From the UHGV virus genome UHGV-0139000: a stretch of DNA of 41,137 nt; one strand, given 5' to 3'. This DNA is from a virus. Positions 1-23,117 of this stretch are shown here, in pieces (the stretch's first letter is position 1; each line of letters opens with the position of its first letter). The position numbers and the translations under genes are program-made. Below the pieces are notes generated by a model. That model was not told the DNA's origin. It saw only the letters and a list, made by a program, of their open reading frames with translations, and did not search any database.

Positions 1-55
1 GTAAATAATGCGCGTATAATGCCCGCCCGGTTTGTGTTGTTTTGAGAGTTTCCTT

Positions 56-103
56 ATGGCGCTGTTAATCACTAAAAAATGCATCAATTGTGATATGTGT
101 GAA
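56..103 (+). pseudogene. yfhL: orphaned native 5' end of host ferredoxin gene (first 16 codons) left at attL
   Basis: ATG at 56 encodes [16 protein letters not shown], then reads into phage DNA and stops after 2 codons (stop 110..112). A near-identical N-terminus ([16 protein letters not shown]) heads the intact ferredoxin ORF at 40827..41087. Confidence 0.6.
86..103. repeat. attL core (18-bp direct repeat)
   Basis: Exact copy of 40857..40874; flanking bases show partial similarity further left. Confidence 0.8.
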
Positions 104-298
104 ATTAAATAAAAATACATTTATTTTCATGGTGATGCAGTAATGTGTTATTGAATGTGTTATTGAATTTATGGTGCAAAAAAATTTTGCATACGTTCAG
201 CAACACAAAGAGCTCCCCTTTCTATAAAGGTTCATTTGAGACTCCCCCTTGACTCCCTCTTCGAAATTGAAGACCATTAACTGTACATAATTACAGTC

Positions 299-577
299 AT
301 GGATAATATTATGCGCAGAAAAGAATCAAACGTTAGCAGTTTGCCGGAACTCACCAATTTTGAGGTAAGCTATTCCCTAGTTACCAATGAAGTTTACTTG
401 TCTGCATCCTTCACTGATAACATGGCCTGTATACCAAACTGGCCCTTACAAGAATTTCCGGATCAACTAATATGCATTTCTCGAGCAAAAGCTATTGCCC
501 TAATCGAAGAGCTCCAGAAGACCATCGACTATATGGACGCAGGAATCGATCGACAATCAGGTAGCCTGCTCCAGTAG
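299..577 (+). CDS. hypothetical protein (92 aa), cargo gene
   Basis: ORF in visibly AT-rich DNA between attL and the tail-fibre switch; no recognisable motif. Confidence 0.35.
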   Translation: MDNIMRRKESNVSSLPELTNFEVSYSLVTNEVYLSASFTDNMACIPNWPLQEFPDQLICISRAKAIALIEELQKTIDYMDAGIDRQSGSLLQ

Positions 578-710
578 CTGGCGAGTTTTATACTCGTTCC
601 CTGCAACAATGGGCTTTTGGTAAGGCACTCACAAATAAGGAATTCGTTAAGGCTTTTGTTCTGGAGACTCTGAAAGATACAAGGAATCAGTTGATGGCTG
701 GTTTGATCAT

Positions 711-751
711 ACTAATTAATATATTGTCAGACTCACAATATATTAATTAGT
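711..751. repeat. perfect 17-bp inverted repeat with 7-nt spacer (actaattaatatattgt / cagactc / acaatatattaattagt)
   Basis: Arms 711..727 and 735..751 are exact reverse complements; lies between the two cargo ORFs. Confidence 0.7.
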
Positions 752-878
752 GGTAGAACATAAAACCGAGTTCTTGACTTTCAATAGCTATTATATGCGA
801 TCAACAACCTTAACCACCTCCTTATATTTTATGAGATACTCAAACAATTTAAATTTATGAGCAAAGGAAAATAATAAA

Positions 879-1724
879 GTGAATAAAAATCCCTGGGATA
901 TTCCAGCATGGCACGCTCTGGGCCGAGAAGCATCTTTAGTTACACAGCTCATTGGTTCTGGGGCAACAGCCATAGGTAAAGCCAATTATGCAGACAAAAT
1001 AGGTGAATATTACACAGCATTTTTTGGGCTTTCTGTAGGTTTTGAGAGACTTGCTAAACTAATACTTGTTGCACACTATGCCATTGAACACAAAGGGAAA
1101 ATGCCTGATGAGAATATTGTAAGAAAATTTGGACATAAGCTCATTGAATTAACCAACGAGGTTGATAGTATTTCTAAAAAAATGCAACTATCTCTGAGAT
1201 ATTCACGTCCTACACATAAAATTACCTACAAAATACTTGAATGTTTAGATTCCTTTGCTGATGCCCGACGGGGACGTTACGCAAATTTCTCCTCATTAAG
1301 CAGCCCCAATTTAACCAATAATGAACCTATTAATAAATGGTGGGGAGAAGTAGCCGAGAGTATCCTTGAAAAACATTATTATTATACAGTTGAACAAAGA
1401 CGTGTTGAAGAAAATGCTAGGTTTATCAATGCCACTCTTTCACCGTATACAACGGTCATGTATATGAATGAAAGTACCAACATTATGCAAGACCTTATAT
1501 CAGCCTCCATCCGTACTGGACAAAATACCATTGTTCAAAAGTGGGGAAGATTCTATTCTCTTAGCATCGCTCGTTGGCTTGCCACAGTATTAGCAGAACT
1601 GTCTGATATAGCTTCTCATAAATATGGAATAATTAGTTTTTATGGCCTTAGTGAACATTGTTGCAGTTATATAGTTGAAGATAGTTTTTTAAAAAACAGA
1701 AAAATATGGCCACTTCGCCAATAG
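879..1724 (+). CDS. hypothetical protein (281 aa), cargo gene of unknown function
   Basis: Long ORF with GTG start at 879 preceded by aaggaaaa; AT-rich codon usage unlike the surrounding phage genes; occupies the position where the invertase 3' half should be. Confidence 0.6.
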   Translation: MNKNPWDIPAWHALGREASLVTQLIGSGATAIGKANYADKIGEYYTAFFGLSVGFERLAKLILVAHYAIEHKGKMPDENIVRKFGHKLIELTNEVDSISKKMQLSLRYSRPTHKITYKILECLDSFADARRGRYANFSSLSSPNLTNNEPINKWWGEVAESILEKHYYYTVEQRRVEENARFINATLSPYTTVMYMNESTNIMQDLISASIRTGQNTIVQKWGRFYSLSIARWLATVLAELSDIASHKYGIISFYGLSEHCCSYIVEDSFLKNRKIWPLRQ

Positions 1725-1728
1725 TTAA

Positions 1729-2043
1729 CTAGAAAATCTGCATAAGGGGGAGAAATCCCCCACCTGTAATAACATAACTACTAAAATTAACACCTTGTTC
1801 GCACAACTCCTCCACCAGCACGACAAGATGCCGCACACTGCGCCCCAGCCGATCCAGCTTCCAGACAACCAGAGTGTCACCTGCCGATAATGTCCTGAGC
1901 AGTTTTTTCAGTCCCGGCCTTTCGGACTTTGTACCGCTTATCTTGTCTTCAAAAAACAGCTCGCATCCTGCACAGTTCAGCGCATTACGTTGTAGATCTG
2001 TGTTCTGGTCATTTGTTGACACACGTACATAGCCAATAAGCAT
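1729..2043 (-). pseudogene. truncated Gin/Pin/Hin-family serine DNA invertase (N-terminal catalytic part only)
   Basis: MLIGYVRVSTNDQNTDLQRNAL...DTLVVWKLDRLGRS matches the invertase catalytic domain as I recall it; similarity ends after about 88 residues (near 1780) and the C-terminal HTH domain is missing. Confidence 0.8.
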
Positions 2044-2069
2044 AGTGGATCCCTCTGACAAAAGCAGGA

Positions 2070-2501
2070 ATGATGCCATTTGCTCGTTATTTCTGCATTT
2101 TCATAAACGTTGGTTTGGGAGAAGCGGCAACGAGGAACGTCGGAACGGATACCGGGCAAGTACCAGATATGAGTAGTTTTACAACGGGGCACTCTGGAGC
2201 AGCAGACTGGCCGAATCCTAAATCTGGATGGAGTAAGGGGCCGGATGGGGTAATTACACAATGGGGTATTTTCGGTTTCCCCGTTGGACAGACAGGGACG
2301 AATGTTGTTTTCCCGCTACCTTTCCCCGCGCGGGTCGAATCAATTACACTGACAATGGCAGATATCCAGGAGTCTCTGCTTTCTCCAGCAACCATGCCTG
2401 CTTATGGAGTTAACTCAACTGGTACTTCAAGAACGGGTTTTACAGCCCGTATGTCAGGCGCCGGTGGGTTTAATCTTTGCTATATAGCGAAAGGGAGATA
2501 A
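2070..2501 (+). CDS. alternative (currently unexpressed) tail-fibre C-terminal cassette inside the invertible segment
   Basis: Reading frame runs through gix-like site L encoding ...NVGLGE, the same peptide the active fibre encodes across site R; followed directly by a Tfa gene. The true coding part begins at the crossover (about 2110). Confidence 0.55.
   Translation: MMPFARYFCIFINVGLGEAATRNVGTDTGQVPDMSSFTTGHSGAADWPNPKSGWSKGPDGVITQWGIFGFPVGQTGTNVVFPLPFPARVESITLTMADIQESLLSPATMPAYGVNSTGTSRTGFTARMSGAGGFNLCYIAKGR
2097..2124. other. gix/hix-like recombination site L of the invertible segment
   Basis: ttggtttgggagaag (2110..2124) is the exact reverse complement of cttctcccaaaccaa at 3948..3962; the site is an imperfect 26-bp palindrome of the AAACC-NN-GGTTT type. 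Confidence 0.65.
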
Positions 2502-2505
2502 CAGA

Positions 2506-2949
2506 ATGAATAAAGTTAAAAGTGTTTACAGCCCGTCCGAAAATGCAATCTACAACGCAGCGCTATATGAAAGTTATATCAAGGAGGGGACATGGCCGCA
2601 GGATGGTATTGAAATCAGCGATGAGGATGCTGTCAGATTTAATGGGGGAAATAAGCCAACAGGAAAAATGCTGGGAATGGTTTCAGGGACCCTTGCATGG
2701 GTTGATGAGCCGCCGCTTTCACCAGAACAGAAAATATCAGATGCAGAAAACATGAAAGCCACATTTCGTGCAAAAGCTGACAGTGAAATATCCTGGCGTC
2801 AGGATGCTGTTGATGCTGGTATCGCAACTGATGAAGAAACTTCAACTCTCACCCAATGGAAGAAATACCGTGTGCTGCTGATGCGTGTTGATACGTCAAC
2901 AGCACCCGATATTGAATGGCCTACGCCTCCGGCAGCTCAGGCCAGATGA
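2506..2949 (+). CDS. tail fibre assembly protein (alternate copy, Tfa')
   Basis: 147 aa; C-terminus TSTAPDIEWPTPP mirrors the C-terminus of the convergent Tfa at 2921..3514; sits after the alternative fibre cassette. Confidence 0.7.
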   Translation: MNKVKSVYSPSENAIYNAALYESYIKEGTWPQDGIEISDEDAVRFNGGNKPTGKMLGMVSGTLAWVDEPPLSPEQKISDAENMKATFRAKADSEISWRQDAVDAGIATDEETSTLTQWKKYRVLLMRVDTSTAPDIEWPTPPAAQAR

Positions 2950-3514
2950 CATCAGGCGCGGTGCTGGTATCTGTTGCCGTCACCGCGTCAATGTAATCCA
3001 GCACGACGTTAAGTCGGGTTGTTTCTGCCTGCGTCAGTTTCCGCCCGGCCTGTAATTTCAGCTGAATCAGACTAATGGAAGCCATTGCTGCATCAATCAG
3101 TGACTGGCGCTGTGCTTCTGCCGCGTCTACTGCGGCACTGTGTTGTGCCTCAGTGTCTGTCACCCATTTCTCACCATCCCATTTATCGTATGGCGTTAAC
3201 GGTGAAATCGTGACATAACCGTCTTTGATGGCACCGATATAATCCACTGTAACAGCTGCGCCATTTTCAGTTGAGTAAACGGTCTCATTGCGATGGTCTT
3301 CTTCATGGCTCCATCCCTTACCCGTAAATACTGCCACTTTTCCCGGAATGTTTTCGCCCGGGTCAATACCAGTGGAACAGGCGGGTATACTTACGCCAGT
3401 ATTAATATATTCATCAGACCAGCCGGTATATTCATACGTTACTGCATTATAATAAAAACAACGCATATCGCCCGGCACTGTAGCCAGCCCATTTTCATCA
3501 AAAACAGGTTTCAT
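2921..3514 (-). CDS. tail fibre assembly protein (Tfa, active orientation)
   Basis: 197 aa immediately downstream of the tail-fibre gene; C-terminus TSTAPDVIWPELP shared with the Tfa' copy. Confidence 0.7.
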   Translation of the reverse strand: MKPVFDENGLATVPGDMRCFYYNAVTYEYTGWSDEYINTGVSIPACSTGIDPGENIPGKVAVFTGKGWSHEEDHRNETVYSTENGAAVTVDYIGAIKDGYVTISPLTPYDKWDGEKWVTDTEAQHSAAVDAAEAQRQSLIDAAMASISLIQLKLQAGRKLTQAETTRLNVVLDYIDAVTATDTSTAPDVIWPELPEA

Positions 3515-4326
3515 TATTTAGCCCTCACCAGAAAGTTAAATGCAATATTTCGCGGTCTGACAGCAACAAAATTCACACCATCACCCACAGAGTTACTGGT
3601 GAAATTAAATCGTGAAAATCCTGGCTGATTTCCGGCGATGCCATCATGAAAGTTAATTGCGTGTCCCGCACCTTCGCCTACATTCCCGGCAAACTGAGAA
3701 AAGTTTGTAGCTGCCTGCCAGCTTAATAATTCGCGACCACCGTCTGCACCTCGCCCGTCATCCCAGATACGAATGAAATCACCGCGGGCTTCAGGTAATA
3801 CCAGCGAAGGAAATACTTTCGCCAGCACAGGATAATCAGTGGCAGAGAATTTCGCGCCGTTGAACTTCAAAAACACCATACTGGACCAGCTGTCGATTAC
3901 AGTATTTGGCATTGCAGCGGACGGCCAGAAGAACGGAACGCCAATAGCTGGAGCACCTTCTCCCAAACCAAGGTTTTCGAGAGCTGTTTTCACCGTGCCG
4001 TCCGATTTGATATCGCCAAACGGATTCTTGCGGCTCAGGTATTCAACAGCAAACCCCGATCCCAGCAATTCAACAAAACCGGGCAGATCACCATTATCAA
4101 GCACATCCCGTTGCGTTTTATCACTTACAAACTGGGCCAGAGCTGCAGCAATAAAGCTGGCCTGCCGAATAACCTTATTGACTTGCGCACTGGAGGCTTT
4201 CCCTGCTGTAAATCCAGATAAAAGCGCGGGCAACGCTTCCCATTCCTCCTGCGATATAACATTGGCATTTCGATCCGTTGCAAACGCTTTAAAGTCATTT
4301 TTCGCCATCAGAGTAATACTCCCCAT
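3514..4326 (-). CDS. tail fibre protein (constant N-terminal part plus currently joined variable C-terminal part)
   Basis: 270 aa; gix-like site R lies inside it and encodes [10 protein letters not shown]; downstream Tfa; preceded by baseplate genes. Confidence 0.7.
3948..3974. other. gix/hix-like recombination site R inside the tail-fibre gene
   Basis: ttctcccaaaccaaggttttcgagag: 26-bp imperfect palindrome; 15 bp identical in inverted orientation to site L. Confidence 0.65.
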
Positions 4327-4988
4327 GCTCCTACATCAAAACCACTGATGAATTCGTTATCCATATCAAAACCAAAAAATTTTGAGCCTTCCGATGGGGT
4401 TTCCACCGAAGGTGTTTCAATGCCACCCGCCCATACCCCGGCGGCTTTTACTGTGAGATACCCCTGTTTAATTGCCGCAATTAACTCACGCGATACATCT
4501 GAAATATCAGTATCAGGAAAGACCCAGACCGATATCGTCATGTCCTGGTTATCGACTATCTGCATTCGCAGCCCGGATCCTGCTGTTGCCGCGTCAAGAA
4601 TTGCCGGAAGCGAATCATTCCGTCCGTCCCAGTTATTAATCGCAATCTTCGCTTTAAGAATGACACGATAAGTTTCATCGCTGAGATACATGTATCCTGA
4701 ATCAGGATCGTATGGTCCCTGCCATACCCCCTGATCATATCCAAGCCCGTCGGTATCCCAGCTGAAATAGACACCTGAGATAGGCTGGCTGACAACACGG
4801 CTACGTCCGATCCACAATCCAAGGATGTCAAGTTGCACACCAACCGCAGAGTCAATATCAAATGCACTAATCAGCCCTCTGGTGGCAGCCGCAACATCAA
4901 TAAGTGGCCGGGTCATCAGATCAACATGCGCAAGAAATTTAGGTTTGGTGGCGTGGTAGTTCGTGATTAGTTCGGTGTATTTGCTCAT
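4308..4988 (-). CDS. baseplate/tail protein (P2 gpI / Mu gp48-like position)
   Basis: 226 aa between the baseplate J-like gene and the tail fibre; assignment by synteny. Confidence 0.5.
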
Positions 4989-6184
4989 GACTCCACCGTT
5001 ATAACGATATTTTTCGGGGTACAGGACGCAGATTCGTTGTATCTGATATCAATGTTTGATGACGACAAAGCCCCCGGGGATTTCCCAATCGTCAGTTCCT
5101 GAATATCGTAATAGCGTGCATTCCCGCCACTCACCACGCCAAGATTCGCCGGTGAGTAAATGCGACTTAAAAGGACCGAATCACCAATCATCAGACTATT
5201 GATATAGTCGGAAATAGCCTGCTGGATCTGCTGCCCTATCTGTGAGGTATAACCCGTAAAAACTTTTAATTTAATCAGGGCATAAACAGGCACATCACTG
5301 GAACGCGAGAATTTGATTACATGGGGATTGCCGTATTTATCCGGAACCGTAACGGATGTTGTACCGTGAGTGGCTGTCCCCTGGCCTTTATTCCCTCTGA
5401 TAGCCTGAGCAATATCCGTTACATCACCGCCATCCACAATTACAGCAACAGAGTGTGGCGGTAACCCGTTACCGTCCTCCGAACCAGTATCGTTTTCATA
5501 GAGTTTGTGGCGGGTTACACCGGTAACATTAGAAACAGCACCATCCAGTGCTTCAAATGGGGTTATTGATGGCAACGCAACACTTTGCGACTGGCGGATA
5601 CGTAACTCAGCGTCAGTTTCTGCCGGAGTGCCCACAGTGGCTGCAGCAGGATTGGTTACCGAAACCCAGCCACGGGTTGGCGTATTAATTTCAGTGATAG
5701 TTCCAGCCAGCGCCGCCACTGCACCACTGACGGAACATGTTGCGGTCACCATCACTGTACCATCCACGCCTACCACCACTGAAGCAGGCAAACGCCATAT
5801 CACATTATTACTGTCTTTCACGCTGCCATTAATGATGGTTGTTCCGGCAGTTCCTGTAAGAAGCAAATCAACCGTAGAGTTCGTCGCGCCTTTACGTGAA
5901 ATACCATTTATTTTCACGTTACAGGTCAGTGCAGCCCCATAGCCGGTTGCCGGTGAAAAACAGTTGTAGACAGTTATCGCCATATTATTGGCATCATGAA
6001 TCGCCAGCGCCATCAGAGCCACCATCTGGCCGTCTTTGCTATCCGGTTCGAGGTAGGCATCACTGCCATAAATCTGCTGAAAATAGCTAATCAGGGTGCT
6101 GAGTATCGTCTGATAATCAGGCGCACTGATCCCCTCCGCGGTTACCTTTGCAGATAAACCGAGAGAATCAAGGTTCAGAGCCAT
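4985..6184 (-). CDS. baseplate J-like protein
   Basis: 399 aa; position and size fit the P2 gpJ / Mu gp47 family; follows the gpW-like and gpV-like genes. Confidence 0.6.
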   Translation of the reverse strand: MALNLDSLGLSAKVTAEGISAPDYQTILSTLISYFQQIYGSDAYLEPDSKDGQMVALMALAIHDANNMAITVYNCFSPATGYGAALTCNVKINGISRKGATNSTVDLLLTGTAGTTIINGSVKDSNNVIWRLPASVVVGVDGTVMVTATCSVSGAVAALAGTITEINTPTRGWVSVTNPAAATVGTPAETDAELRIRQSQSVALPSITPFEALDGAVSNVTGVTRHKLYENDTGSEDGNGLPPHSVAVIVDGGDVTDIAQAIRGNKGQGTATHGTTSVTVPDKYGNPHVIKFSRSSDVPVYALIKLKVFTGYTSQIGQQIQQAISDYINSLMIGDSVLLSRIYSPANLGVVSGGNARYYDIQELTIGKSPGALSSSNIDIRYNESASCTPKNIVITVES

Positions 6185-6537
6185 TACGCCTCCGATGTAA
6201 CAGTCGTTATTCCATAAAGAGTGTCGATTTCAGCGGAAAACATGACACGTCGGGTCGTGGTATCCACCGTCGTATTGAAATAGAGGATTGATTTAACGCC
6301 CTGCGTTTCCAGAATGCGCTTACGGATCGCCAGGTTGTAGGTTTCCGGCTTCTGCCTGCCCAGCACGGACTGGATCCATGGAGTCCCTTCGGTGGTGTCG
6401 AGAAACCATTGCCCATACCACAATTCGAATCGCGTTTTTACCGCCTGCGCCACGGCCTCCGGTGAGTTAATCAGCCAGGTGTCATCACCGCTGCCAAAGG
6501 TGTAATCGCCATCGGCGTCTTCACGTCTGTATCGCAT
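6184..6537 (-). CDS. small baseplate protein (gpW / gp25 / gp46-like position)
   Basis: 117 aa between the spike and J-like genes; synteny only. Confidence 0.45.
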   Translation of the reverse strand: MRYRREDADGDYTFGSGDDTWLINSPEAVAQAVKTRFELWYGQWFLDTTEGTPWIQSVLGRQKPETYNLAIRKRILETQGVKSILYFNTTVDTTTRRVMFSAEIDTLYGITTVTSEA

Positions 6538-7289
6538 CAGTTTACTCCGTCGGTATTGCTTCCACCGCGCTGAACACCACCATGAGTGTGCGTATCATCG
6601 ATTAGCTTGCCGTTAGCCTTCACGCTACCCAAAAACTCAACAGCACCAGTGATTTTTGAAGCCACACCAGAAACCACAGACCCCACCATGCCCCCCATCC
6701 AGGTTAACAGGCCATGAATGGTTACTTTCTCAGAAAAATCAGCCAGAGGGGCAACCACATCAAGGCCCCCCGGAGCGACAATTTTAATTTTCCTGGTATC
6801 AGGATTAAGCTCAAAATAGGTGCTGCCGTCATCACTACGCAACTGTGTGGCACTGGTATTAATACCGCTAATCTTCCTTGCCTGCGACTGGGGACCGACA
6901 ATACAAAACGCATCCGATAAATCATGCATTCTGTCATCGACCGGCTCCTGTATCCCGCCACTCTGCCACCAGAAATCAATACAACGATCGGCAAAAATCA
7001 CCAAACATTCATCACCGGCTTTAACTGGAAAAGTCAACGTACAGCCTCCGCCGCGCGGAAATACCACTGGCACATCCACCAGCAGGGGTAATGTCGTCGA
7101 CTGGTTGATTCCATTTGAGTCCGGCTCATAGCCTTTAATCGCAGGTTGAACAACCACTGTTACCGTGTCCGGATCAAATGACTGGACGATGCCGGGCATA
7201 GAAACACGCAGCGCCGACATGACAGAGCCAGCAAGTCTTACATCGGCCTGTTCTTTGCTACCAAGTTGAGCGCTTAAAGAAACGGGCAT
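6537..7289 (-). CDS. baseplate spike / assembly protein V-like
   Basis: 250 aa; N-terminal region (MPGIVQSFDPDTVTVVVQP...LPLLVDVPVVFPRGGG) resembles the gpV OB-fold spike family. Confidence 0.6.
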   Translation of the reverse strand: MPVSLSAQLGSKEQADVRLAGSVMSALRVSMPGIVQSFDPDTVTVVVQPAIKGYEPDSNGINQSTTLPLLVDVPVVFPRGGGCTLTFPVKAGDECLVIFADRCIDFWWQSGGIQEPVDDRMHDLSDAFCIVGPQSQARKISGINTSATQLRSDDGSTYFELNPDTRKIKIVAPGGLDVVAPLADFSEKVTIHGLLTWMGGMVGSVVSGVASKITGAVEFLGSVKANGKLIDDTHTHGGVQRGGSNTDGVN

Positions 7290-7306
7290 TCATATGTCTC
7301 CAGAAA

Positions 7307-7332
7307 GTAAAAAACCCGCCGGGTGGCGGGTT
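7307..7332 (-). terminator. rho-independent terminator downstream of the 79-aa membrane-protein gene
   Basis: Hairpin aacccgcc-gggt-ggcgggtt (7313..7332) followed on the minus strand by a run of six T (plus-strand A run 7309..7314). Confidence 0.6.
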
Positions 7333-7348
7333 CATTATTGAAGTTTCA

Positions 7349-7588
7349 TTACTGCTTGTTTGCTTCTAACGCTTCAGCTATTCGGCGAAGATACTCATTG
7401 TTTTTAAATGAAACCATGATGCACTCAAAGAATATTCGGCAAAATACAGCACATAACAAAAGCACTAAAGCGCCAGCAGCCTTCCCATTAACAAACGTTA
7501 TAATGGCGGCAACAACCAGAAGTAACATTGTGATGCCATACAGAACGTTGATGATTTTTGGAGTTATTAATTTATCAAATCCGAACAT
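7349..7588 (-). CDS. small two-helix membrane protein (79 aa), moron
   Basis: Two hydrophobic helices (ITMLLLVVAAIITFV, ALVLLLCAVFCRIFF); AT-rich; own terminator; inserted between baseplate genes. Confidence 0.55.
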   Translation of the reverse strand: MFGFDKLITPKIINVLYGITMLLLVVAAIITFVNGKAAGALVLLLCAVFCRIFFECIMVSFKNNEYLRRIAEALEANKQ

Positions 7589-7727
7589 GCGACAAATTCC
7601 TTATCGTGAAAGTAGAAGTATCACATTATAATTACGGGTGATTAATCAACAATCTTTTTGCATGGAAAGGAACCGATGATTTTCGGCGCATCCATGCTGT
7701 TCTGCAGAAGCTGGACGCAAATGTAAT

Positions 7728-8063
7728 TCACTTCACCTTCCGGCAATCATACGTCCAGAACTCCCGAGGCTCGTCCATATTTTTGCGGATAACTTCAACG
7801 TTGAGGATCGCTTTTTTGTTTCGTTTGATGTAGTCCATACCTAACCAACGTCCAGTATTAGGATCAGGTAACATCCATTGCATCATGACATTATCGAAAT
7901 CGTCTTTTTGTTTCAAAAAGGTCATTTTTTGTGTTTCTGGCTTTTGACCATTGATGTGCATGAGGCCATCATTACCAGCATCAAAGCGGAATGGTCCGCA
8001 CTGCGTTGCCGCCGAAACTGTTAACGGCAGGGCCAAGAATAAACAAAAAAATACTTTTTTCAC
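7728..8063 (-). CDS. secreted/periplasmic small protein (111 aa) with signal peptide, moron
   Basis: N-terminal MKKVFFCLFLALPLTVSA signal-like sequence, two Cys in the mature part; AT-rich; stop overlaps the start of the upstream tail gene. Confidence 0.55.
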   Translation of the reverse strand: MKKVFFCLFLALPLTVSAATQCGPFRFDAGNDGLMHINGQKPETQKMTFLKQKDDFDNVMMQWMLPDPNTGRWLGMDYIKRNKKAILNVEVIRKNMDEPREFWTYDCRKVK

Positions 8064-9094
8064 TCTACATCTCCGACTTTGTCCAAAGTGCCTTTTGCCA
8101 ATAGTTCTTTGCCACCTTTAGCCAGGCAAAGCAGGTCCATATACCACGCCTGCCCTCGGGTGTCGCCAGTATAATCAATGCTGCCCACAATGTAATCACC
8201 GTCAGTATTAATGCTGGCAGGCTGTGACATGCCTGGCAGACCGTTAACGTAGAGATTACCGTCGCTTTCAGACTCATCCAGTCGTGCTGGCGATTTCGCT
8301 ACCTGGTCATTACTCAAAGAGGCACGGTATACAGATGCCTGATCCAGACGAATAAGCCCACCGAGCTTAATATTTGGATTAATCAGGCATCTGACATTTA
8401 CGCCAGCTCCCATCGTCTGCTGTGGCATACCGATAAGCCCGGTGTTAGCATTCAACACCGTAGCAACACCAATATATTTATCTTCAGGAACAATATTTAC
8501 CAGATTATTTTCATACCACCAGTTAGCCTTACACTGCCCTGCGATATGATTCATCAACCTTGATGTGTTTTGATAAACAACGCGCCCCCGGGGAAATACC
8601 GTTTCAGGCATGTCAGGAACTGCGCCGGATTCGATGCCATATGGTTCGAATGATTTCATACCCAGACTGAAAAGATCTCTGTACTTCCAGCCAGCTGCCA
8701 CTGTGGTTTTCACACTTGCGTTCAGGTGGCCTTCCCAGCTGTCAATACACTGCAACATGATCCAACTGTCTGTGGCATTATCTTTACCAGTGACAGTAAA
8801 ACGGATATCTCCATTGAATATCATACCAACGTTTTCATCAGGATAATTACCTGCTGCATCCGGTTGCCCCTTGTATCCGGCAATAACCTGTATACGCGAA
8901 AACTCCTTCTGCATAATCCGGTTCTGAGTGGTAGGAGACAGGTTATAAACCTTAAAATTTCCAACGAATCCATTAAATATGGTCGCAGGCATTTTCTGAA
9001 TATTGAAAGTGACTTTAAGCTCAGAAAATTTTATCCCGTCGCCCTTATCATCAACAAGTAATAATTCAAAGTGACGCATCCAGTTTTTCGACAT
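8060..9094 (-). CDS. tail/baseplate hub protein (putative)
   Basis: 344 aa between tape measure and spike genes; synteny only. Confidence 0.45.
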   Translation of the reverse strand: MSKNWMRHFELLLVDDKGDGIKFSELKVTFNIQKMPATIFNGFVGNFKVYNLSPTTQNRIMQKEFSRIQVIAGYKGQPDAAGNYPDENVGMIFNGDIRFTVTGKDNATDSWIMLQCIDSWEGHLNASVKTTVAAGWKYRDLFSLGMKSFEPYGIESGAVPDMPETVFPRGRVVYQNTSRLMNHIAGQCKANWWYENNLVNIVPEDKYIGVATVLNANTGLIGMPQQTMGAGVNVRCLINPNIKLGGLIRLDQASVYRASLSNDQVAKSPARLDESESDGNLYVNGLPGMSQPASINTDGDYIVGSIDYTGDTRGQAWYMDLLCLAKGGKELLAKGTLDKVGDVE

Positions 9095-9096
9095 TG

Positions 9097-9399
9097 TTAC
9101 TCCGTGAAAACATAGAGGTGTGAGAGCGTTCCAAGATCGAATTGCGTCGGATTCTCCTGCCCTGCCACGTCGCAGAGCACCACCAGAGAAAAACCCAGAT
9201 CCATATATCGATACTGTGCCAGCAGGTCAGCCCCAGTAATCATCGGTATACCTGATATAATGGCGGAGCCATTGCTGTCAGCAAGATCCAGAACCCAGTA
9301 CTCGCCTCGCCAGATGACAGACAGGTGATAAACCGAACCGTTAATTGTGGTGGCAAAAGTCTGATTGTCAGCAACCAGTGGGATTTCTACGGCTTGCAT
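9097..9399 (-). CDS. tail protein, hypothetical (100 aa)
   Basis: Tightly packed within the tail operon. Confidence 0.4.
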   Translation of the reverse strand: MQAVEIPLVADNQTFATTINGSVYHLSVIWRGEYWVLDLADSNGSAIISGIPMITGADLLAQYRYMDLGFSLVVLCDVAGQENPTQFDLGTLSHLYVFTE

Positions 9400-9402
9400 G
9401 AA

Positions 9403-10053
9403 TCACCTTCCCAGAAATAAATTGCTCAAATACCCATCAACAGTGGAGATACCTTCTTGCGCCATCTGTGGCAGCGATTTCAGAATGGAATTATTCGGCA
9501 GCACCGTTGTTTTGGTGCCTGTATTCTGCACAGCAGACGTTCCGACTCCCTCGGTCATATTGTTTTTCGGGGCAACCCTGACTGACTGCGTGGAGGTAAT
9601 AATTACTTCCCTGAGGGTAAATGTCGCCAGAAGCACATTTTCACTACTCTTATCGGTCGTAACCTCCAGCGTTTTTATCAACATATTGTTGTAAATACGC
9701 TTGCCGGTTGTCACATCGAAAGGAATACGATTCCGCTGCAGGTTAAGCAGTTCCTGATACAGTTCTTTCGGGCTCAGCCCCAGTAAACTGGTAGCCGTCA
9801 GGTTACTGGCAAAATCAAGCAGCGATCCGCCTCCGGAAAAACCGGTTTCCATCACAACCTCAGAAGGGCGCCTGAATGCGTGTTCTGATATATAACCAGC
9901 GCCCTCACCACTGGCACCAGCATTCGTGGGCTGTTCAACCGGATGTTCCGTAATTTCCAGGGCGTCAGTGTGCTTTTCGGTAATAACCACATCAGGAATA
10001 ATGATTCCTATTGAGCGGGTTCGCTGCTGCAGTAAAACAGATAAAAAGTCCAT
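9403..10053 (-). CDS. tail protein, hypothetical (216 aa), directly downstream of tape measure
   Basis: Start overlaps the tape-measure stop; synteny only. Confidence 0.4.
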   Translation of the reverse strand: MDFLSVLLQQRTRSIGIIIPDVVITEKHTDALEITEHPVEQPTNAGASGEGAGYISEHAFRRPSEVVMETGFSGGGSLLDFASNLTATSLLGLSPKELYQELLNLQRNRIPFDVTTGKRIYNNMLIKTLEVTTDKSSENVLLATFTLREVIITSTQSVRVAPKNNMTEGVGTSAVQNTGTKTTVLPNNSILKSLPQMAQEGISTVDGYLSNLFLGR

Positions 10054-12059
10054 TACGCAGGTCCTTTCAATTGCTGTACCGCCCTGGCATTTACAGCCCC
10101 CTGCTTGTCAGCGATCAGATTAGCCGCCTCCTGAGGGTTGTTAACTCCATGAACATTTATAACAGTCTGCTGGTTAAGGCTGCCAGCGGCGGCCTGATAC
10201 GCCAGCGGGCTGTTCCAGTTTGAATAACCTTCTTTGCGCGCCATCGACTGCATCAATGCTCCCATAGTCTGGGGATCTGTAAGATTCAATATTGCATTCG
10301 GTGATACTCCCATCCATTTCGCAACATCCTGTGCATACTTTTTCGGATCGTTGTTATCACCTGCCGGGGCCCAGGTACTGACAATATCCTGAATAGTCTG
10401 TAATGCTCGTCCGGTTGTTTTCCCGGTAAAGTAACGCATGAGCTGATTTTTCATCGCCTCCCAGCCCTCAAGAGCTGATTCGAAAAACCGGAACCCTTTA
10501 CCGCTCACCGGGCGAATGTTCCCGGGGTTATTGTTGCGATCAGCAAGAGTACCGCCGCCGGGGATGTCGGGCTGGACGTTGGAGCCATGCACTACACCGT
10601 TACTCTGTCCCTGCCGGATAACTTTACCGGGTCCCCCGTGCAACCAGTCCATCCACGCAGGCCATTCACGGACCTCACTGACATCCCTGCGTCCGATATC
10701 TGTTTTTATACCAATAGCAGCCAGCGTGTCGCCGATAATTCGCTTCGTATACCTCAGTGAAGATTTTGCGCTATCGGCAATATTTTCTCTGTCACTAACA
10801 ATATAGCCCGCGTAAAGCGCCCACAATTTAAGCCAGGGTGGGACCGGTAAACCTGATATTTTTCCGAAAGCCCCCAGAACCTTGGATACCCAGACACCCG
10901 CGATGAATGTACCGAGGATTTCCAGTGCATTTTGCCAGCCGCCAACACCATCTTTTAGTTCCAGAAGGTGATCACGAAGCCAGGTGATCGCATCCTTCGC
11001 TTTATCTATTGCCGGTTGCCATTTTTCCCAGTCGATAAGACTGTTACCGCCTTCTTTCCATGTTTTGTAGTCTTCCCACAAGAGACCGAGAGCCACGATC
11101 AGACCGGTAATCAGCCCTATAGGTGACATCCAGAAAGTAGAGTTAAGTATCCGCATGGCGACAACCAGACCGCCGATAACCTCTATCAGGGTTTTCGTTT
11201 CGGCATCCAGTTTCCCCCACCACTCGATGATATCGCCGACACCATCGACTATCCGAAATGCTACCCGCCCGACTATCTCACCCAGCCAGAGGATCCCCTT
11301 TATGACCTTTGTGATGGTGACTTCAATTTTGGGAAAATTTTCAATTATCTTTTTGCGCAGGTTATCAATCTGCCCCGCCAGTCCGTCCGCAAGATTCGAT
11401 CCGATTTTGTCCCGCGCCATCCCGGCCATTTCACCGAGCGATTTCAGCGAGGTCATAAACCGGTTTGACGATAAGGCAGCCTGATCGGCATTAAATCCGA
11501 TCGCTTTCACCATTTCTGAATACTGAGCGCTGAACTGCCCCACACCACGACGCATGGCCATCAGGGTATTTTCGTCAATGCCCAGCATCTGCGCATACTG
11601 GTTAGCCCGGTAATACGGCATACCGCTGAGCTTCTGGCCTACACCTGTAAAAATAGCGGCCATGTCACGCATGTTGCCGCTGGCATCACGGGTCTGTACG
11701 CCCAGGCGATTCAGAAAGCCTTCTGCTCCGGGATTGTTACGAATAAACCGGGAGAGGCTTTCCAGAGAAGATCGCGCAGCGTCCACACTGCCGCCAACCT
11801 GCGAAACCGCATAGCCAATAGACTGAATTCCCTGGACTGTCGCGCCGGTGCGCTGTGACGCCCAGTAAAGATTATCCAGGCCGGAGGCGATCTTAGCCGT
11901 GAAGGCCACCACGGACAGCGCAGCTCCTTCAACGGCCAGTCCCATTTTGATGACATTTGCAGTTGTACCGGCGAGGACAGAACCGAACTTTTTCGCTCCT
12001 GCATCATCCACACTGAAGCCAAGCGAGACGAGGAAATCTTTAATAGTTTCAGCGTTCAT
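10053..12059 (-). CDS. tail tape measure protein
   Basis: About 668 aa with Ala/Gly-rich helical segments and a hydrophobic central region; downstream of sheath, tube and chaperone genes. ATG at 12059 with upstream GGAGAGAGG preferred over the TTG at 12080. Confidence 0.75.
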   Translation of the reverse strand: MNAETIKDFLVSLGFSVDDAGAKKFGSVLAGTTANVIKMGLAVEGAALSVVAFTAKIASGLDNLYWASQRTGATVQGIQSIGYAVSQVGGSVDAARSSLESLSRFIRNNPGAEGFLNRLGVQTRDASGNMRDMAAIFTGVGQKLSGMPYYRANQYAQMLGIDENTLMAMRRGVGQFSAQYSEMVKAIGFNADQAALSSNRFMTSLKSLGEMAGMARDKIGSNLADGLAGQIDNLRKKIIENFPKIEVTITKVIKGILWLGEIVGRVAFRIVDGVGDIIEWWGKLDAETKTLIEVIGGLVVAMRILNSTFWMSPIGLITGLIVALGLLWEDYKTWKEGGNSLIDWEKWQPAIDKAKDAITWLRDHLLELKDGVGGWQNALEILGTFIAGVWVSKVLGAFGKISGLPVPPWLKLWALYAGYIVSDRENIADSAKSSLRYTKRIIGDTLAAIGIKTDIGRRDVSEVREWPAWMDWLHGGPGKVIRQGQSNGVVHGSNVQPDIPGGGTLADRNNNPGNIRPVSGKGFRFFESALEGWEAMKNQLMRYFTGKTTGRALQTIQDIVSTWAPAGDNNDPKKYAQDVAKWMGVSPNAILNLTDPQTMGALMQSMARKEGYSNWNSPLAYQAAAGSLNQQTVINVHGVNNPQEAANLIADKQGAVNARAVQQLKGPA

Positions 12060-12291
12060 TATCCTCTCTCCATTTCTCAATGCGCCGCTGGTTATCTGCT
12101 TTTACCGCCAGATGGTCATTCAAGAGAGCAATGTCATACAAATCGACAGAGCCATCTTTAAGTGCTGTATAGGGAATTAACCCGGCGTCAACCGGATTGA
12201 GAAGGTAGGACAGCCCGTCCGGCAGGCTGTTAAACGTCAGCCCTGTTGCAGGCTCTGCGTCGTGCTGGTAAGGGGTGTAGGCAAAAAATTT
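12049..12291 (-). other. -1 frameshift extension of the tail assembly chaperone (G/GT or E/E' type)
   Basis: Minus-strand run AAATTTTTT (12283..12291) 15 codons before the chaperone stop; the -1 frame is then open for about 79 codons and ends at TGA 12049..12051, overlapping the tape-measure ATG. Confidence 0.5.
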
Positions 12292-12689
12292 CCCAGCGAA
12301 TCGGCGACCACCCGCGCCACCAGCTGCAGCATGACCAGCAGGTCAATATCATCAAACATCAGTTCACCCTGGGTAAATACCGGAACCCATCCGTCCATAT
12401 GACGCCGCGATACCACCGCAAGACAGGGATGAATAATCGCATCGGTGTCATCTTCGGTCAGGGAAGACAGTTCCTCAGCGATACGCGGGAGCATGGTTTC
12501 AAACACCGGTTTTAACTGCTCGAATTTCACGGTGTCGATTTTGCCATCAGCAGGCAAACGGGAGCGAATGCTCCCGAAATCTGACATCATTCCTGCCAGC
12601 ACCGGCAGAAGTTTGCGGGTCACTTTCAGCTGGTCAAAAACGCTGAGTTTTGCCGCGCGATATTTCACGCCTTTAATTTCGAATTCCAT
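12237..12689 (-). CDS. tail assembly chaperone
   Basis: 150 aa between tube and tape measure; carries the slippery site and -1 extension. Confidence 0.6.
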   Translation of the reverse strand: MEFEIKGVKYRAAKLSVFDQLKVTRKLLPVLAGMMSDFGSIRSRLPADGKIDTVKFEQLKPVFETMLPRIAEELSSLTEDDTDAIIHPCLAVVSRRHMDGWVPVFTQGELMFDDIDLLVMLQLVARVVADSLGNFLPTPLTSTTQSLQQG

Positions 12690-12692
12690 GTA

Positions 12693-13133
12693 TTAAAACT
12701 CCCCGAGAACCTGGTCAATCTTGCCACAGTCAAACACCCACGGCATCGTATTACCGGTTTTAGCGTTGGCGTTATCCGGTTGCTTCTGGAACGCAACACT
12801 GCGTGCCGTGATGATGTCGCCGCTGACCTTGTTGCGGATCACGATAACGTTATTCCCCCATGTGGCAGAAGACTGGCTCTGTGCGTTATACGCCAGCGAC
12901 AATTTTTTATTTGTCGGTGATGTCTTCAGAAGGTTAACGGTAATCGTCCCGCTTTTATCTGCATGGAGACTGTGCATCACTTCGCCATCAGCACCGATGG
13001 TCATGGTGTTTTTAGGACCGCCCATCGCAACCACAATCCCCTCTTCAGAACTTGCCGAACCGTACCCGAGGTCAATCGAACCTGTCGGCCCGGTCAGCGT
13101 CGCAGTGACATCCATAAAAGAATAGGTAGACAT
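12693..13133 (-). CDS. tail tube protein
   Basis: 146 aa immediately downstream of the sheath gene; myovirus sheath-tube-chaperone-tape measure order. Confidence 0.55.
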   Translation of the reverse strand: MSTYSFMDVTATLTGPTGSIDLGYGSASSEEGIVVAMGGPKNTMTIGADGEVMHSLHADKSGTITVNLLKTSPTNKKLSLAYNAQSQSSATWGNNVIVIRNKVSGDIITARSVAFQKQPDNANAKTGNTMPWVFDCGKIDQVLGEF

Positions 13134-13143
13134 TCACTTCCCC

Positions 13144-14289
13144 TTAGCGAACAACGTTAATCTGTACGTCAGCGTAATGAACCGCGCCTGCAAGTTTTAT
13201 TGCAGCCTGAATCACCGGAGCCTTACGGGCTTCACGTTCTGATTGTGCCTGTTCATCCAGCGGCTGGGCGTATACGTAATAACCTTTGGGCAGTGTGTCA
13301 CCTGATGACAACTGACCAAGGTCGCCCCCGCTCCATACGCCCGGAGCAATCAGTCCATTCTGAACGGCCTGATCCAGTGATTTTTCAACATTTGATAACA
13401 GTCGGGTAATACCGGCTTCAGTCTGGGGAACTTTCGTGGTGCTGGTATAAAGCAGGTTATAGAGGTTGGTCTGCACATAATTCTGTAACCAGTCCAGGCC
13501 GTGGCGTTCATCAAAGAAATCGCCGTTAGCCATCACTCCCTGCTGGAGGATAGCCGTATCATTCTGGTAGTACACGAATACATTGCAGTTTTTTGCATCA
13601 AGTGCCGATGCCTGGCTGACTGTCAGTGTTTCATACCCGACACCCGGCTCCTGCTTAAACTTGAGCGTAATCGCGGTATTACTGCCATTGAAATTAACCG
13701 TGAATACCCGGCCAAATGCAGATAACGCAGCGTATTTATTACCCGATGAATACTGAATAAAACTGCGTGAATATCCGGCGGTTTTCAGTTTTGATGCCAA
13801 ATCATCGCTGGATGCAGTCTGCAGGCATTTATCATCGCTTGTCGTAATCGCCAGAATACGGCTTACAGAAGAGGATTCGATCGCCGCAGCCACTTTCAGC
13901 CAGTCTGCATCCGGAATATCTTCATCGTCTGCAATCCCCAGCCCATACCATGAAGTATAATCGAGCATGGCATTCACAGCCTGCTCCAGCGTCTCAGGCG
14001 TGGCCTGTTCGCTGTCTCCCTTCGTTTTCACCCAACGACCAACAAAAACCTCCTGAGGTTTCGGTGATTGTGAGAAAAACACCTGCGCAGCTTTATATTC
14101 TGGTGATTCCACGCCAAAATCTTTTCCAATATCTTCCGCGGCAGAATAACGACGAATGCGCTCACTTACCGGAATGATTGTGGACGGGCCGAGAATGAGT
14201 AATGCACCAAAATTTCGCCCTGATGCTGCACGCGGCGACATGATCACATCAACATTAACAACGTTTGATACAGGCAAGCCCTGTGCCAT
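13144..14289 (-). CDS. tail sheath protein
   Basis: 381 aa, first gene of the tail-shaft block; synteny. Confidence 0.55.
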
Positions 14290-14292
14290 AGC

Positions 14293-14859
14293 TTAATCTC
14301 CGAAAAAGGTGACTGGTGCTTCCACCAGCGATTTAATACCGTACTCGCGCACAACCTTCCGGCGCAGACGCACCGTCATATCGTAGCGGCGGACCCATTG
14401 CTGATTAATAAGTTCAGGGAAGGGAGTCAGACCTGTGTAATCGCCAAGAGACAGCCCCAGCGCATTCAGTGCTGCATTGTTCTGCGGCACAGATATACCG
14501 TCACGAAACCGGGACGCATACACCATCCCCGCCGGTCCATAAAACGAAGCCATACACTCAATCGTTTCATGCCGCCAGAGCTGAGAGCCATCATCGGTCT
14601 GTCTGGTGAATGCCGGACTGTCATCACCTGACCATCCGATAACCCCAAACGCACACCAGTTCGTTTCAACCGGTAGCAGTGGCGGCTGCTCTTTCTGCCA
14701 GCGCGGGCGAACCATCCCGGCAGACAGACCGGAAACGTTACGCATCCACTGGCTTAACAGCCTGTCGAGCGCTTCGTCATAATCCGGATCGCCACTGGTT
14801 GGTATTAACCATCCGCGCTCTGTACTGGTGTTATTGCTCAACCGGAGTTCCCCCATCAA
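14293..14859 (-). CDS. head-tail/neck structural protein, hypothetical (188 aa)
   Basis: Compact operon position between head and sheath. Confidence 0.4.
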   Translation of the reverse strand: MMGELRLSNNTSTERGWLIPTSGDPDYDEALDRLLSQWMRNVSGLSAGMVRPRWQKEQPPLLPVETNWCAFGVIGWSGDDSPAFTRQTDDGSQLWRHETIECMASFYGPAGMVYASRFRDGISVPQNNAALNALGLSLGDYTGLTPFPELINQQWVRRYDMTVRLRRKVVREYGIKSLVEAPVTFFGD

Positions 14860-15220
14860 ACGGCATCAACTCACAATGCGCCTGAACGAATCCGGCCCCA
14901 TAAGCTGTATACGGGTCGACGAAGGTCACACGATAATCACGGCCCTGATACGTCACGATATCGGCATCACGGCCAGTCTGTCCCTGCGTCAGTCGCTCAG
15001 TCGTCACAATCAGAATTGCACCGCTGATTACCTGCCCTGCCTGCATACGGCGGTTTTCCAGAGAGCGATCAACAGTTACGACTCCGGCAAACTGCTTTTT
15101 AACTTCACTGTCGCTGCCGATCCCGTCCTCATCCACCGTTTGCACTCGGCGTGTTACCCACAAATTGAAGTCGCAAAAATCGGGGTCAAAAAGCACATCT
15201 GTTACATCAAGAGTCGGCAT
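14831..15220 (-). CDS. head-tail joining protein, hypothetical (129 aa)
   Basis: Operon position; overlapping starts and stops. Confidence 0.4.
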   Translation of the reverse strand: MPTLDVTDVLFDPDFCDFNLWVTRRVQTVDEDGIGSDSEVKKQFAGVVTVDRSLENRRMQAGQVISGAILIVTTERLTQGQTGRDADIVTYQGRDYRVTFVDPYTAYGAGFVQAHCELMPFDGGTPVEQ

Positions 15221-15761
15221 CTTTATCCCTCACTACATGGGTAATCGCTCTGCGATATTGCCCGGTGTCAATTAATGGTTTCGCCAGATCGGTTCCGGGA
15301 GATTCGCCAGCAACACGCCGGGAAAGTTCCAGTGTTGCCCCCTTGCGCCCCCGACGAGCCCGGGCTTCAACAGTGCTGTCAGCAAGCGGCGTAAAGCCGG
15401 TAATAGTCATGTAACGCCTGACGCCATTAGCGGCCAGCGTTCCGGCACGGTTGAGTGCGCGTTCTGCTCCCGCAGCATTACCATCAAGAGCAGCCTGCGC
15501 CGCGGTTTTGAGCTGCGGCACCGTCTGCTCTTCTGCCGATTTAACGCCGGGGACCAGGTGAGGTCGTGGCGGGATGTTCTGCTCTGGTGAGCCGTATTCG
15601 TTGAGGTAACCGATGCCCGCATTACCAAACGGAACATCATCCCGCTCGCTGTCTTCCGAAGGGATGCCGACCAGCACATCTTTTTTGGTTAACGACCTGA
15701 GCGCATCCAGAATGGCCTTAGCGTTATCCACCCTCGTTGTTACACCGCTTTTGAAACTCAT
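15207..15761 (-). CDS. head-tail joining/neck protein, hypothetical (184 aa)
   Basis: Operon position. Confidence 0.4.
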
Positions 15762-16165
15762 AGCTGGCGACCGCCTGCACCGAACATCGTGATCAACTGA
15801 TAAAATTCAGCGCCATATCGGGTGTTATTCCAGAAACCTGCATCAGGATTCAGCGTCGCGCTGGTGTCATAGCTGACGCTTACCTTATCCACGGACTTTG
15901 AGGACTGAACACCATTGGTTGAACCGCCCGGACCACCAGCCAGCATCGCTCTGCTGTCTGCCGCCCAGAGCGTCATGTAGTGCGCAACGAACAATCCGGC
16001 AAAGTACGGAAACAACTTTTTGCCGGTGACGTTTTCACTCAGCAGTTCATCGGCCAGATTCAGACGAAACTGGATTTGCGCTTCGGGATATTTGGCAGGG
16101 TCAGCAAACTGCGGGAAGTCGCGGCGAAAATCACTTACCGCTGGCAGACTTTGATTCTTTGGCAT
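15758..16165 (-). CDS. head-tail connector protein, hypothetical (135 aa)
   Basis: Operon position after the capsid gene. Confidence 0.4.
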
Positions 16166-16352
16166 TTTTTACCTCGTTACGCGCGTCTGTGGCTTTGCCA
16201 ACGGATACTTCCGCGTGCGCACGAGTGAACCAGTGCGTGGCAACTTCTTCCTCCACAGCATGACGGCCTTTAACAAACTCGCGCCGTGAACCGTCGGGAA
16301 GCGTGAGCACAAACGGGGTATGTACGTGTATTACTGCATTATTTTTTGCCAT
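16131..16352 (-). CDS. hypothetical small structural-module protein (73 aa)
   Basis: ORF between the capsid gene and connector genes. Confidence 0.35.
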
Positions 16353-16393
16353 CGGGTCATCCTTAATGGCCCCGCCAGGGGGCCATGTGGCTG

Positions 16394-17335: not shown

Positions 17336-17346
17336 TCGTCTGTTCC

Positions 17347-17853: not shown

Positions 17854-17856
17854 TTT

Positions 17857-19077: not shown

Positions 19078-19091
19078 GGGTTACCTGCGAT

Positions 19092-22805: not shown

Positions 22806-22877
22806 ACCTAGCCCTAACTGTTGAAGTTATTATAAACTGGAAGCATATTACTTATGTTTATTTGAAAAGGAGATTTT

Positions 22878-23084
22878 ATGACGCCCGCAGTTAGTACCCG
22901 ATTATTAGAACTGACTCGTGATTTAAATAACGATATTAGAATCGCTGCTATCTATGCTTTAGGAGAAGGAGGTAATGCTACGCTATCAGCCGTTAACCGT
23001 CTTCTTGAGTTAACTCGTGATTCAAATAACGACATTAGAATTGCAGCAACCAAAGCTCTCGGACGTATTTTTCGGAGCAAATAA
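22878..23084 (+). CDS. HEAT-like repeat mini-protein (68 aa, two tandem repeats)
   Basis: Strong RBS (aaaggag, 6 nt before ATG). Protein has two tandem copies of RLLELTRD(L/S)NNDIRIAA...ALG; the DNA copies differ at synonymous positions. Antisense between terS and terL. Confidence 0.6.
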   Translation: MTPAVSTRLLELTRDLNNDIRIAAIYALGEGGNATLSAVNRLLELTRDSNNDIRIAATKALGRIFRSK

Positions 23085-23117
23085 GTAAAAATGCCGCTCT
23101 CTCCACGAGCGGCATAC

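Follow-up and report, generated by a model that had tools for sequence, protein, structure and literature searches.

What does the AT-rich left end of the prophage in virus genome UHGV-0139000 carry, and what did its acquisition cost the phage? The stretch that we analysed (41,137 nucleotides (nt), hereafter the window) holds a prophage of ~40.8 kb whose host is Escherichia coli. An original prediction, made from the sequence alone, had read positions 104..1780 as a single foreign island with two same-strand open reading frames (ORFs), of 92 and 281 amino acids (aa) and here called ORF92 and ORF281, that had deprived the phage of its DNA invertase, and it had proposed the 281-aa protein as the prime candidate for a new single-gene defence. 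The account to which we have come combines a composite island, a mobile cassette and, in ORF281, a latent RNase of the abortive-infection type; taken jointly, we give it an even chance of being right.

Composition of the left end and its cargo slot

The AT-richness of the left end was borne out by a windowed GC check, with 37.0% GC in 104..1780 vs 49.7% in 2080..40830; among windows of the same size in the rest of the prophage (mean 49.8%, standard deviation 3.2, minimum 40.3%), none was as low. Both ORFs were likewise confirmed on the plus strand, ORF92 at 299..577 with an ATG start and ORF281 at 879..1724 with a GTG start. The island is not, however, a unit. Positions 1..592 are ~94% identical to the same place in related prophages at the host gene yfhL, and the similarity to these sister prophages breaks 15 nt after the ORF92 stop codon (592/593) and resumes only inside the invertase gene, leaving 593..~1780 as the specific part. 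In a set of 5426 complete E. coli genomes, 129 match part of 104..1780; the full cassette is present in 44, while ~85 others have 104..592 only.

The status of ORF92 as cargo did not survive this comparison. The gene is intact in the prophages of H10407, KOr019 and 2014C-3061 (96.7% aa identity), and Salmonella phage SEN34 has it at 83% identity, there also beside int and attP; because it is intact in relatives and always next to the attachment site, we assign it to the backbone of the lineage. It belongs to phrog_17793 (E = 6.7e-46), a family of unknown function, and has no match in Pfam, PADLOC or PDB. Sequence comparison thus suggests that 104..592 is lineage backbone and that 593..~1780 is a horizontally acquired cassette with one gene. 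This cassette (593..1780, plus strand, 1.19 kb, 36.3% GC) is made up of a leader, ORF281 and a 3' hairpin.

The AT-rich leader contains a near-perfect palindrome of 41 bp (711..751; 20-nt arms, 95% complementary, 1 nt between), which as RNA has a folding energy of -19.8 kcal/mol (z = -5.6; matched by 0 of 200 shuffled sequences) and overlaps promoter-like hexamers on both strands; an operator and an RNA hairpin are both possibilities. Promoter-like sites upstream of ORF281 lie in 801..875. The GC hairpin expected near the island end is present on the plus strand, one base away from its predicted position (1746..1761, not 1745..1760): it reads GGGGGA-GAAA-TCCCCC and begins 21 nt downstream of the ORF281 stop codon, with a folding energy of -14.6 kcal/mol (z = -2.7). 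Having no U-tract, and not being called by a terminator scan, it was rejected as an intrinsic terminator. Insertion of the cassette through attC recombination was also rejected, as neither junction has an attC or a convincing core site.

Comparison at the same yfhL site upholds the notion of a hot spot for cargo in the region that separates attL from the tail-fibre switch, since the cargo varies and includes matches to defence genes; five different cargo sets occupy the slot in related prophages. The enterotoxigenic strain H10407 has a 215-aa gene there (locus L015, 1610..2257). The slot of KOr019 adds genes of 152 aa and 272 aa (L016, 7562..8843), a pair with matches to PDC-M50A (E = 3.7e-26) and to the Thoeris TIR protein ThsB1 (E = 7.7e-43). 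A hexapeptide acetyltransferase is found in 2014C-3061, and an acyltransferase in SEN34. The 215-aa gene is annotated at the slot in all three sister prophages inspected (H10407, KOr019 and 2014C-3061) and may for this reason be its commonest occupant; its product, without a Pfam or PADLOC match, is a further, uncharacterised cargo candidate.

The inner edge of the cassette is marked by what remains of a serine invertase of the Gin/Pin type, namely its N-terminal catalytic half (1777..2043, minus strand), annotated in RefSeq as a pseudogene 'missing C-terminus' and assigned to phrog_125 (DNA invertase). Of the 145 positions of the Resolvase N-terminal model, the minus-strand ORF 1729..2079 covers 2-98 alone, so that not even the catalytic domain is complete, and it lacks the C-terminal helix-turn-helix DNA-binding part. 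Against the full-length copy of H10407, protein similarity ends after ...GVNF(S/R)S, at ~nt 1780, as had been predicted. The cassette abuts the same truncated invertase in the carriers with annotation inspected (H1, 22AR0747 and M-17), and among the matches listed every full-length one overlies a 'recombinase family protein' feature. The sister prophages differ in what is left of the gene, which is full-length but frameshifted in H10407, reduced to 105 nt in KOr019 and absent from 2014C-3061. We conclude from these alignments that the cassette probably replaced an earlier cargo of the slot together with the 3' half of the adjacent invertase gene, and that cargo exchange appears to erode this gene repeatedly.

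ORF281, its relatives and its predicted fold

ORF281 belongs to an unannotated family. The protein gave no usable match in Pfam, NCBIfam, PHROG or PADLOC (v2.0.0, 2023), nor did ten longer or more distant relatives; its 486 close relatives are all named 'hypothetical', and neither WP_001039127 nor the peptide motifs of the family occur in the literature searched, which took in the supplements (incomplete) of a mobile-integron defence paper and of a language-model defence atlas. The family comprises 955 clusters at 50% identity (E <= 1e-3), its full-length members being nearly all of 265-290 aa. Across 121 sequences that are 26-74% identical to ORF281, residues E56, K60, H86, Y134 and W154 are invariant, and E17, G28, R57, F126, R133, N136, E198 and R232 are conserved in at least 93%. 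In a scan with one genome per species, Mycobacterium, Nitrospinota, Fibrobacteraceae and Binatia proved to have copies at 50-56% identity, which points to horizontal spread under strong constraint. In M-17, where the flanks are ~4% divergent, ORF281 has four nucleotide substitutions, all synonymous, and the identical protein WP_001039127.1 is intact in the three carriers with annotation inspected. The ribosome-binding region upstream of the gene is conserved and common to homologues, and each of the enterobacterial copies has a hairpin 3' of the stop, in the same relative place and of different sequence.

The contexts of the relatives were surveyed in a census of 57 loci, one per species, whose flanking genes were scanned for Pfam families. 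The commonest of these families are HsdR, the next gene downstream in 7 of the 57 loci, HsdS, immediately upstream in 6 and one gene further in 3 more, and HsdM, two genes upstream in 7. Between 7 and 9 of the 57 relatives thus lie inside type I restriction operons, often just 10-20 nt from their neighbours, whereas the window copy lies in a prophage. The order hsdM-hsdS-X-hsdR, X being the relative of ORF281, was verified directly in Nitratireductor; Erythrobacter has hsdS-(204 aa)-X-hsdR and Mesorhizobium hsdM-hsdS-X followed by a TIR protein. The 204-aa protein of Erythrobacter ani (L076, 5368..5979) shows a weak match to PD-T4-4_B (E = 5.5e-7), and as it stands between hsdS and the homologue, some operon-embedded versions may be two-gene systems. 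An Enterobacter copy comes directly after hsdMSR; the island around it is bounded by an integrase and has DUF4917, Vsr and HNH genes as well.

Other relatives travel on other vehicles. Of two in P2-like prophages, the Serratia one has gpA and the portal gene on either side and a PvuII restriction system as a neighbour, and the Morganella one stands between tail-fibre assembly and sheath genes; we take these positions to be the old/tin and Z/fun sites of P2, known hot spots of exclusion genes. A Klebsiella prophage has a relative at its end, next to umuDC, and in Motiliproteus the neighbour is an IS110 transposase. The copies of V. cholerae and V. vulnificus belong to arrays of short genes that all point one way, each gene with VCR-type repeats of 120-135 nt at its ends, as in the integron example L025 (gene 3038-3880 between repeats 2884-3016 and 3883-4015). 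The window copy has no attC, and some enterobacterial copies have a GTTAGGC-like core ~45 nt upstream. Family genes have 37-43% GC in enterobacterial hosts of 50-55%, which fits the ~40% GC of Vibrio integron arrays. A distant member is present on 133 of 134 matching plasmids; the hosts are Klebsiella, E. coli and Salmonella, most of the plasmids are conjugative, and IncX1 is among them. On the IncX1 plasmid pRHB25-C19_3 (L034, 4968..5789) this member has 273 aa (hhalign probability 99.9) and lies upstream of hns, hha and topB. Judged from these loci, the family seems to move as a single gene, whether as an integron cassette, as an insert between hsdS and hsdR, as P2-like cargo at two sites or on IncX1 plasmids.

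TgvAB, a gene pair embedded in a type I restriction operon, has been shown to be a phage defence (PMC11411939), as have the HEC systems, including the HEPN protein HEC-08, that are embedded in type I restriction or Hma operons (10.1101/2024.01.29.577857). The strongest support for a defence role of ORF281 is contextual: genes that experiments have placed in the hsdS-hsdR slot or within other immune operons are defences, and the slot of a sister prophage holds the pair with the ThsB match.

An AlphaFold model built from a deep alignment (predicted local distance difference test 96.1, predicted template modelling score 0.93) is all-alpha with one beta-hairpin (194-204), which led us to drop a PD-(D/E)xK nuclease, a candidate raised by the E...K spacing. 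HEPN chains recur down the match list of this model: YutE, sacsin, TT1696, HepN toxins, Csm6 and AbiV (9bj5), and further the AbiA C-terminal domain, AF0298, HI0074 and the Gifsy-1 HepS; a weaker first model gave the same HEPN picture. Foldseek found nothing significant in the PDB, and the whole protein has therefore no close solved relative. As modelled, the core is a four-helix up-down bundle with a long insert between its helices 2 and 3, and helix 42-70 bears E56-R-L-A-K60. In a survey of the superfamily, an E-x3-[KR] motif on helix 2 is found in many families and Rx4-6H stands where helix 3 ends, and in the AbiV/AF0298 variant the His gives way to a conserved one from the insert that separates helices 2 and 3 (PMC3710099). 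With E56-x3-K60, with H86 after R/K82 in the insert and with R133 lacking a downstream His, ORF281 resembles this variant. We infer from the model that its N-terminal ~150 residues form a divergent HEPN-type bundle with a putative active site of E56/K60, R/K82-H86 and R133-Y134-x-N136.

On this basis ORF281 would be a stand-alone, divergent, metal-independent RNase of the HEPN type and of abortive-infection character. It would be expressed in the lysogen, either from the AT-rich promoter region of its own (the sites in 801..875) or by read-through from the interrupted yfhL, and be held inactive by its C-terminal half; in the operon-embedded relatives the restriction complex would perhaps take this part, as it does for PrrC. 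The enzyme would be turned on when another phage infects, translation would be shut down, and that phage would be excluded.

Several observations weigh against such an enzyme. Neither where helix 3 ends nor in the next loop is there a canonical Rx4-6H: R133, 99% conserved, follows helix 114-127 and has no His at +5 to +7 (D/E stands at +5 in ~60%), the residue after it is an invariant Tyr and not N, D or H, and the sole invariant His, H86, belongs to the insert between helices 2 and 3, preceded by R/K82 at a spacer of 3. No HEPN sequence profile matches ORF281 significantly, and neither HEPN nor defence profiles of Pfam, PADLOC, NCBIfam or PHROG match it even at E = 1; in a permissive scan of the 121 members, the commonest weak matches were HEPN_AbiV in Pfam (2 of 121, E = 0.0022) and CARF_HEPN_mCpol in PADLOC (3 of 121, E = 0.0031). 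PDB sequence searches with the single protein, a full-length profile and an N-terminal profile returned chance matches to designed helical proteins only, and no HEPN entry. The identity of 50-56% across phyla is above what is usual for fast-evolving immune proteins. An RNase that is expressed constitutively has to be kept in check, and no conserved partner gene for it turned up. Many relatives, finally, are lone genes among housekeeping genes (Alphaproteobacteria). As the prime defence candidate of the original prediction, the 281-aa protein is a good single-gene candidate on context and fold, without the canonical HEPN motif or any match to a defence model.

Prophage setting and tail-fibre switch

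The att core AATTGTGATATGTGTGAA (18 bp) occurs exactly twice in the window, at 86..103 (attL) and as a direct repeat at 40857..40874 (attR), with no copy expected by chance, and these copies place the start of the prophage at ~104. The left copy lies inside the first codons of yfhL, a ferredoxin gene, directly 3' of yfhH. The host gene is split after codon 16: a truncated yfhL' remains at 56..112 on the plus strand, as read from the sequence and with yfhH immediately upstream in a matching genome, and the promoter of this stub points into the left end of the prophage, while yfhL is rebuilt at attR (40827..41087, plus strand) with a 5' end and upstream region supplied by the phage. Read-through from the host promoter of the stub could drive ORF92 and ORF281 specifically in the lysogen. 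The ORF adjoining attR at the right end (39215..40618, minus strand) is read as the prophage integrase from this adjacency and from the layout of SEN34, where an integrase is annotated, and not from a family scan.

A near-identical locus is found in strain 82.0312 (99.9% over 1..2600), and most of 1..2600 is present in 42 genomes in total. The gene layout is that of SEN34 (Brunovirus): int, attP, a small conserved ORF, cargo, tail-fibre chaperone and fibre, DUF2612 and baseplate J. The phage belongs to a lineage of SEN34-like myoviruses whose integration site is the 5' end of yfhL. The GenBank entry ON470579 ('Escherichia phage vB_EcoM-606R2', 'complete phage genome') matches the same stretch of the window as do ON470588 and ON470593, and it opens with the host genes tadA, yfhB and yfhH (L002, 1..2254); because of this start, it must be a prophage region with host flanks and not a packaged genome. 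A repressor of the CI/LexA type (HTH_3 and Peptidase_S24; 29083..29757), presumably that of prophage lysogeny, is encoded in an AT-rich stretch. Three more patches fall below 40% GC (33360..33989 and 36881..37606, both on the minus strand, and 7251..7950). The first two hold ORFs of 209 aa and 241 aa, on the opposite strand among plus-strand early genes. None of the three patches has a Pfam or PADLOC match, nor do the two ORFs match the PDB, and all three look like additional accessory genes.

Next to the invertase remnant, an invertible tail-fibre segment is bounded by a left crossover site (2105..2124) and a right one (3957..3976), which form an inverted repeat, 95% complementary; the right site lies inside the tail-fibre gene 3514..4326 (minus strand). 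Matches to other genomes end at 2124 or 2130, by the left site. The cassette had been held to cost the phage its invertase. That a truncated invertase abuts it stands, but the switch may not be frozen: the crossover sites are intact, and 22AR0747, whose cassette is identical and whose invertase is truncated in the same way, carries 2902..3976 inverted (L032, 5605..6679), in a segment that is only 94.6% identical. Other carriers of the cassette have different alternative fibre-tip cassettes. Enzymes of the Gin/Pin/Cin/Hin group can stand in for each other in trans, and the 5' part of the invertase gene, which the window remnant has kept, contains the recombinational enhancer. Either flipping continues in trans or, in view of the identity of only 94.6%, segments are swapped by recombination. 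In M-17 (L033, 5123..5523), 54 of 400 nt differ from window 1725..2124, whereas only 4 of 846 differ in the adjacent ORF281, which indicates that the region of the remnant and the crossover site has recombined with another prophage lineage since the cassette arrived.

Known counterparts of ORF281 and alternative functions

Among characterised systems, AbiV of Lactococcus (PF18728, PDB 9bj5) comes close in layout. Its most conserved residues are E67 and K70, its catalytic R91..H97 lie in a flexible insert ~24 residues later, R, H and their spacing are not strictly conserved in the family, and it degrades rRNA without metal (10.1101/2024.05.05.592566). Aligning the two by position, from the sequence, the distance from E56 to R/K82 in ORF281 is 26 residues as against ~24. 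ORF281 differs in having no match to the AbiV model of Pfam, in its extra C-terminal helical half (281 aa vs 201 aa), in the R-H spacer (3 vs 5) and in its lack of an evident counterpart to the RNA antitoxin of AbiV (abiV2), no flanking element being common across contexts; and AbiV is not reported in type I restriction operons or integrons, where relatives of ORF281 are found.

The second counterpart is PrrC, whose gene occupies the hsdS-hsdR slot of the EcoprrI locus, the same as that of the ORF281 relatives. The nuclease domain of PrrC is also HEPN, and slot and nuclease together suggest a latent RNase that backs up restriction. Unlike PrrC and RloC, ORF281 has no ABC-ATPase domain (no ATPase family match, and an all-alpha model), no canonical Rx4-6H and no sequence similarity to them, and linkage to a restriction system is absent from the window copy and from most relatives. 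HepS, the HEPN abortive-infection protein of Gifsy-1 (PDB 9oik), has no sequence relationship to ORF281; it has the classical HEPN histidine (the solved chain is an H105A mutant) and a known trigger, the tail tip J of lambda. The integron-cassette HEPN protein Vpc_cass2 (PDB 3jrt) is of another family, with 166 aa and a canonical Rx4-6H. The cargo-site genes of P2 (old, tin and Z/fun), TgvAB and HEC-08 resemble ORF281 as accessory genes, single or paired and foreign in composition, that occupy fixed variable slots in temperate phages or lie inside restriction operons; their proteins are unrelated to it, and their phenotypes are demonstrated. By this comparison ORF281 would work most like AbiV and, where operon-embedded, like PrrC, although it lacks the features that define membership of either, and we rate its family as a new one within the HEPN-type defence repertoire.

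What else could maintain such a gene? It might be a toxin of maintenance or stress, acting through addiction or dormancy, or a fitness factor without relation to phages, that stabilises its carrier, an option that we think unlikely but which deserves real weight. Members are found close to hns, hha and topB on IncX1 backbones, toxin-antitoxin cassettes adjoin them in integron arrays, and dormancy-inducing roles have been proposed for integron HEPN proteins by Anantharaman et al. (PMC3710099). Against this option, no conserved antitoxin gene is adjacent, the integron members are single cassettes between attC sites, and the gene recurs beside restriction systems and at the exclusion-gene sites of P2 (old/tin and Z/fun).

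The frequent company of type I systems invites two further proposals. One might speculate, with somewhat less confidence again, that ORF281 proteins are portable guards like PrrC, silenced by a type I complex, encoded in the same operon or resident in the host, and firing when an anti-restriction protein of a phage disables that complex. More doubtful still, ORF281 could be an accessory or regulatory subunit of type I restriction-modification, which controls restriction during establishment, alleviates it or tunes HsdR and is no autonomous effector; the prophage copy would then modulate the resident type I system of the host in favour of the phage. Genes that alleviate restriction do occur in prophages (lambda ral, Rac lar), and this proposal would suit both the ~9 of 57 species-level loci with the tightly spaced hsdM-hsdS-X-hsdR order and the Enterobacter copy directly after hsdR. 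It sits less well with the majority of members, which lie away from restriction systems (those in integron cassettes, in P2 hot spots and on IncX1 plasmids, and the singletons), with an invariant set of E, K, H, R and Y that resembles an active site more than a docking surface, and with the other genes proven in the same slot, which are independent defences. That the cassette is a decaying remnant with a silent ORF281 is very improbable: the adjacent invertase is a pseudogene, insertion sequences interrupt the region in carriers H18, H52 and H56 and baseplate and tail-fibre genes are frameshifted in sister prophages, but the ORF is intact, its product is identical in three carriers, the M-17 differences are all synonymous, the ribosome-binding region is shared with homologues and the family is conserved across phyla.

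The comparisons describe, in this phage lineage, an attL-proximal slot that swaps cargo at the expense of the tail-fibre invertase. Being so widespread, conserved and consistently in immune contexts, ORF281 is worth testing. If, as the abortive-infection RNase reading has it, the protein is an anti-phage effector, its family would be a new and very widespread single-gene defence (955 clusters, in Proteobacteria, Actinobacteria and several other phyla) that is invisible to the releases of Pfam, NCBIfam, PHROG and PADLOC searched, and its non-canonical, AbiV-like active-site layout would broaden what counts as a catalytic HEPN domain. With hsdS-X-hsdR as a recurrent arrangement, the PrrC principle, an RNase that backs up restriction, gains a second case open to testing; were the guard proposal true, a one-gene module would plug into any host type I system, and the prophage gene would both depend on host restriction and reinforce it. 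The occurrence of the same gene in integron, type I operon, prophage and plasmid gives an unusually clear view of how an immune module may move between vehicles.

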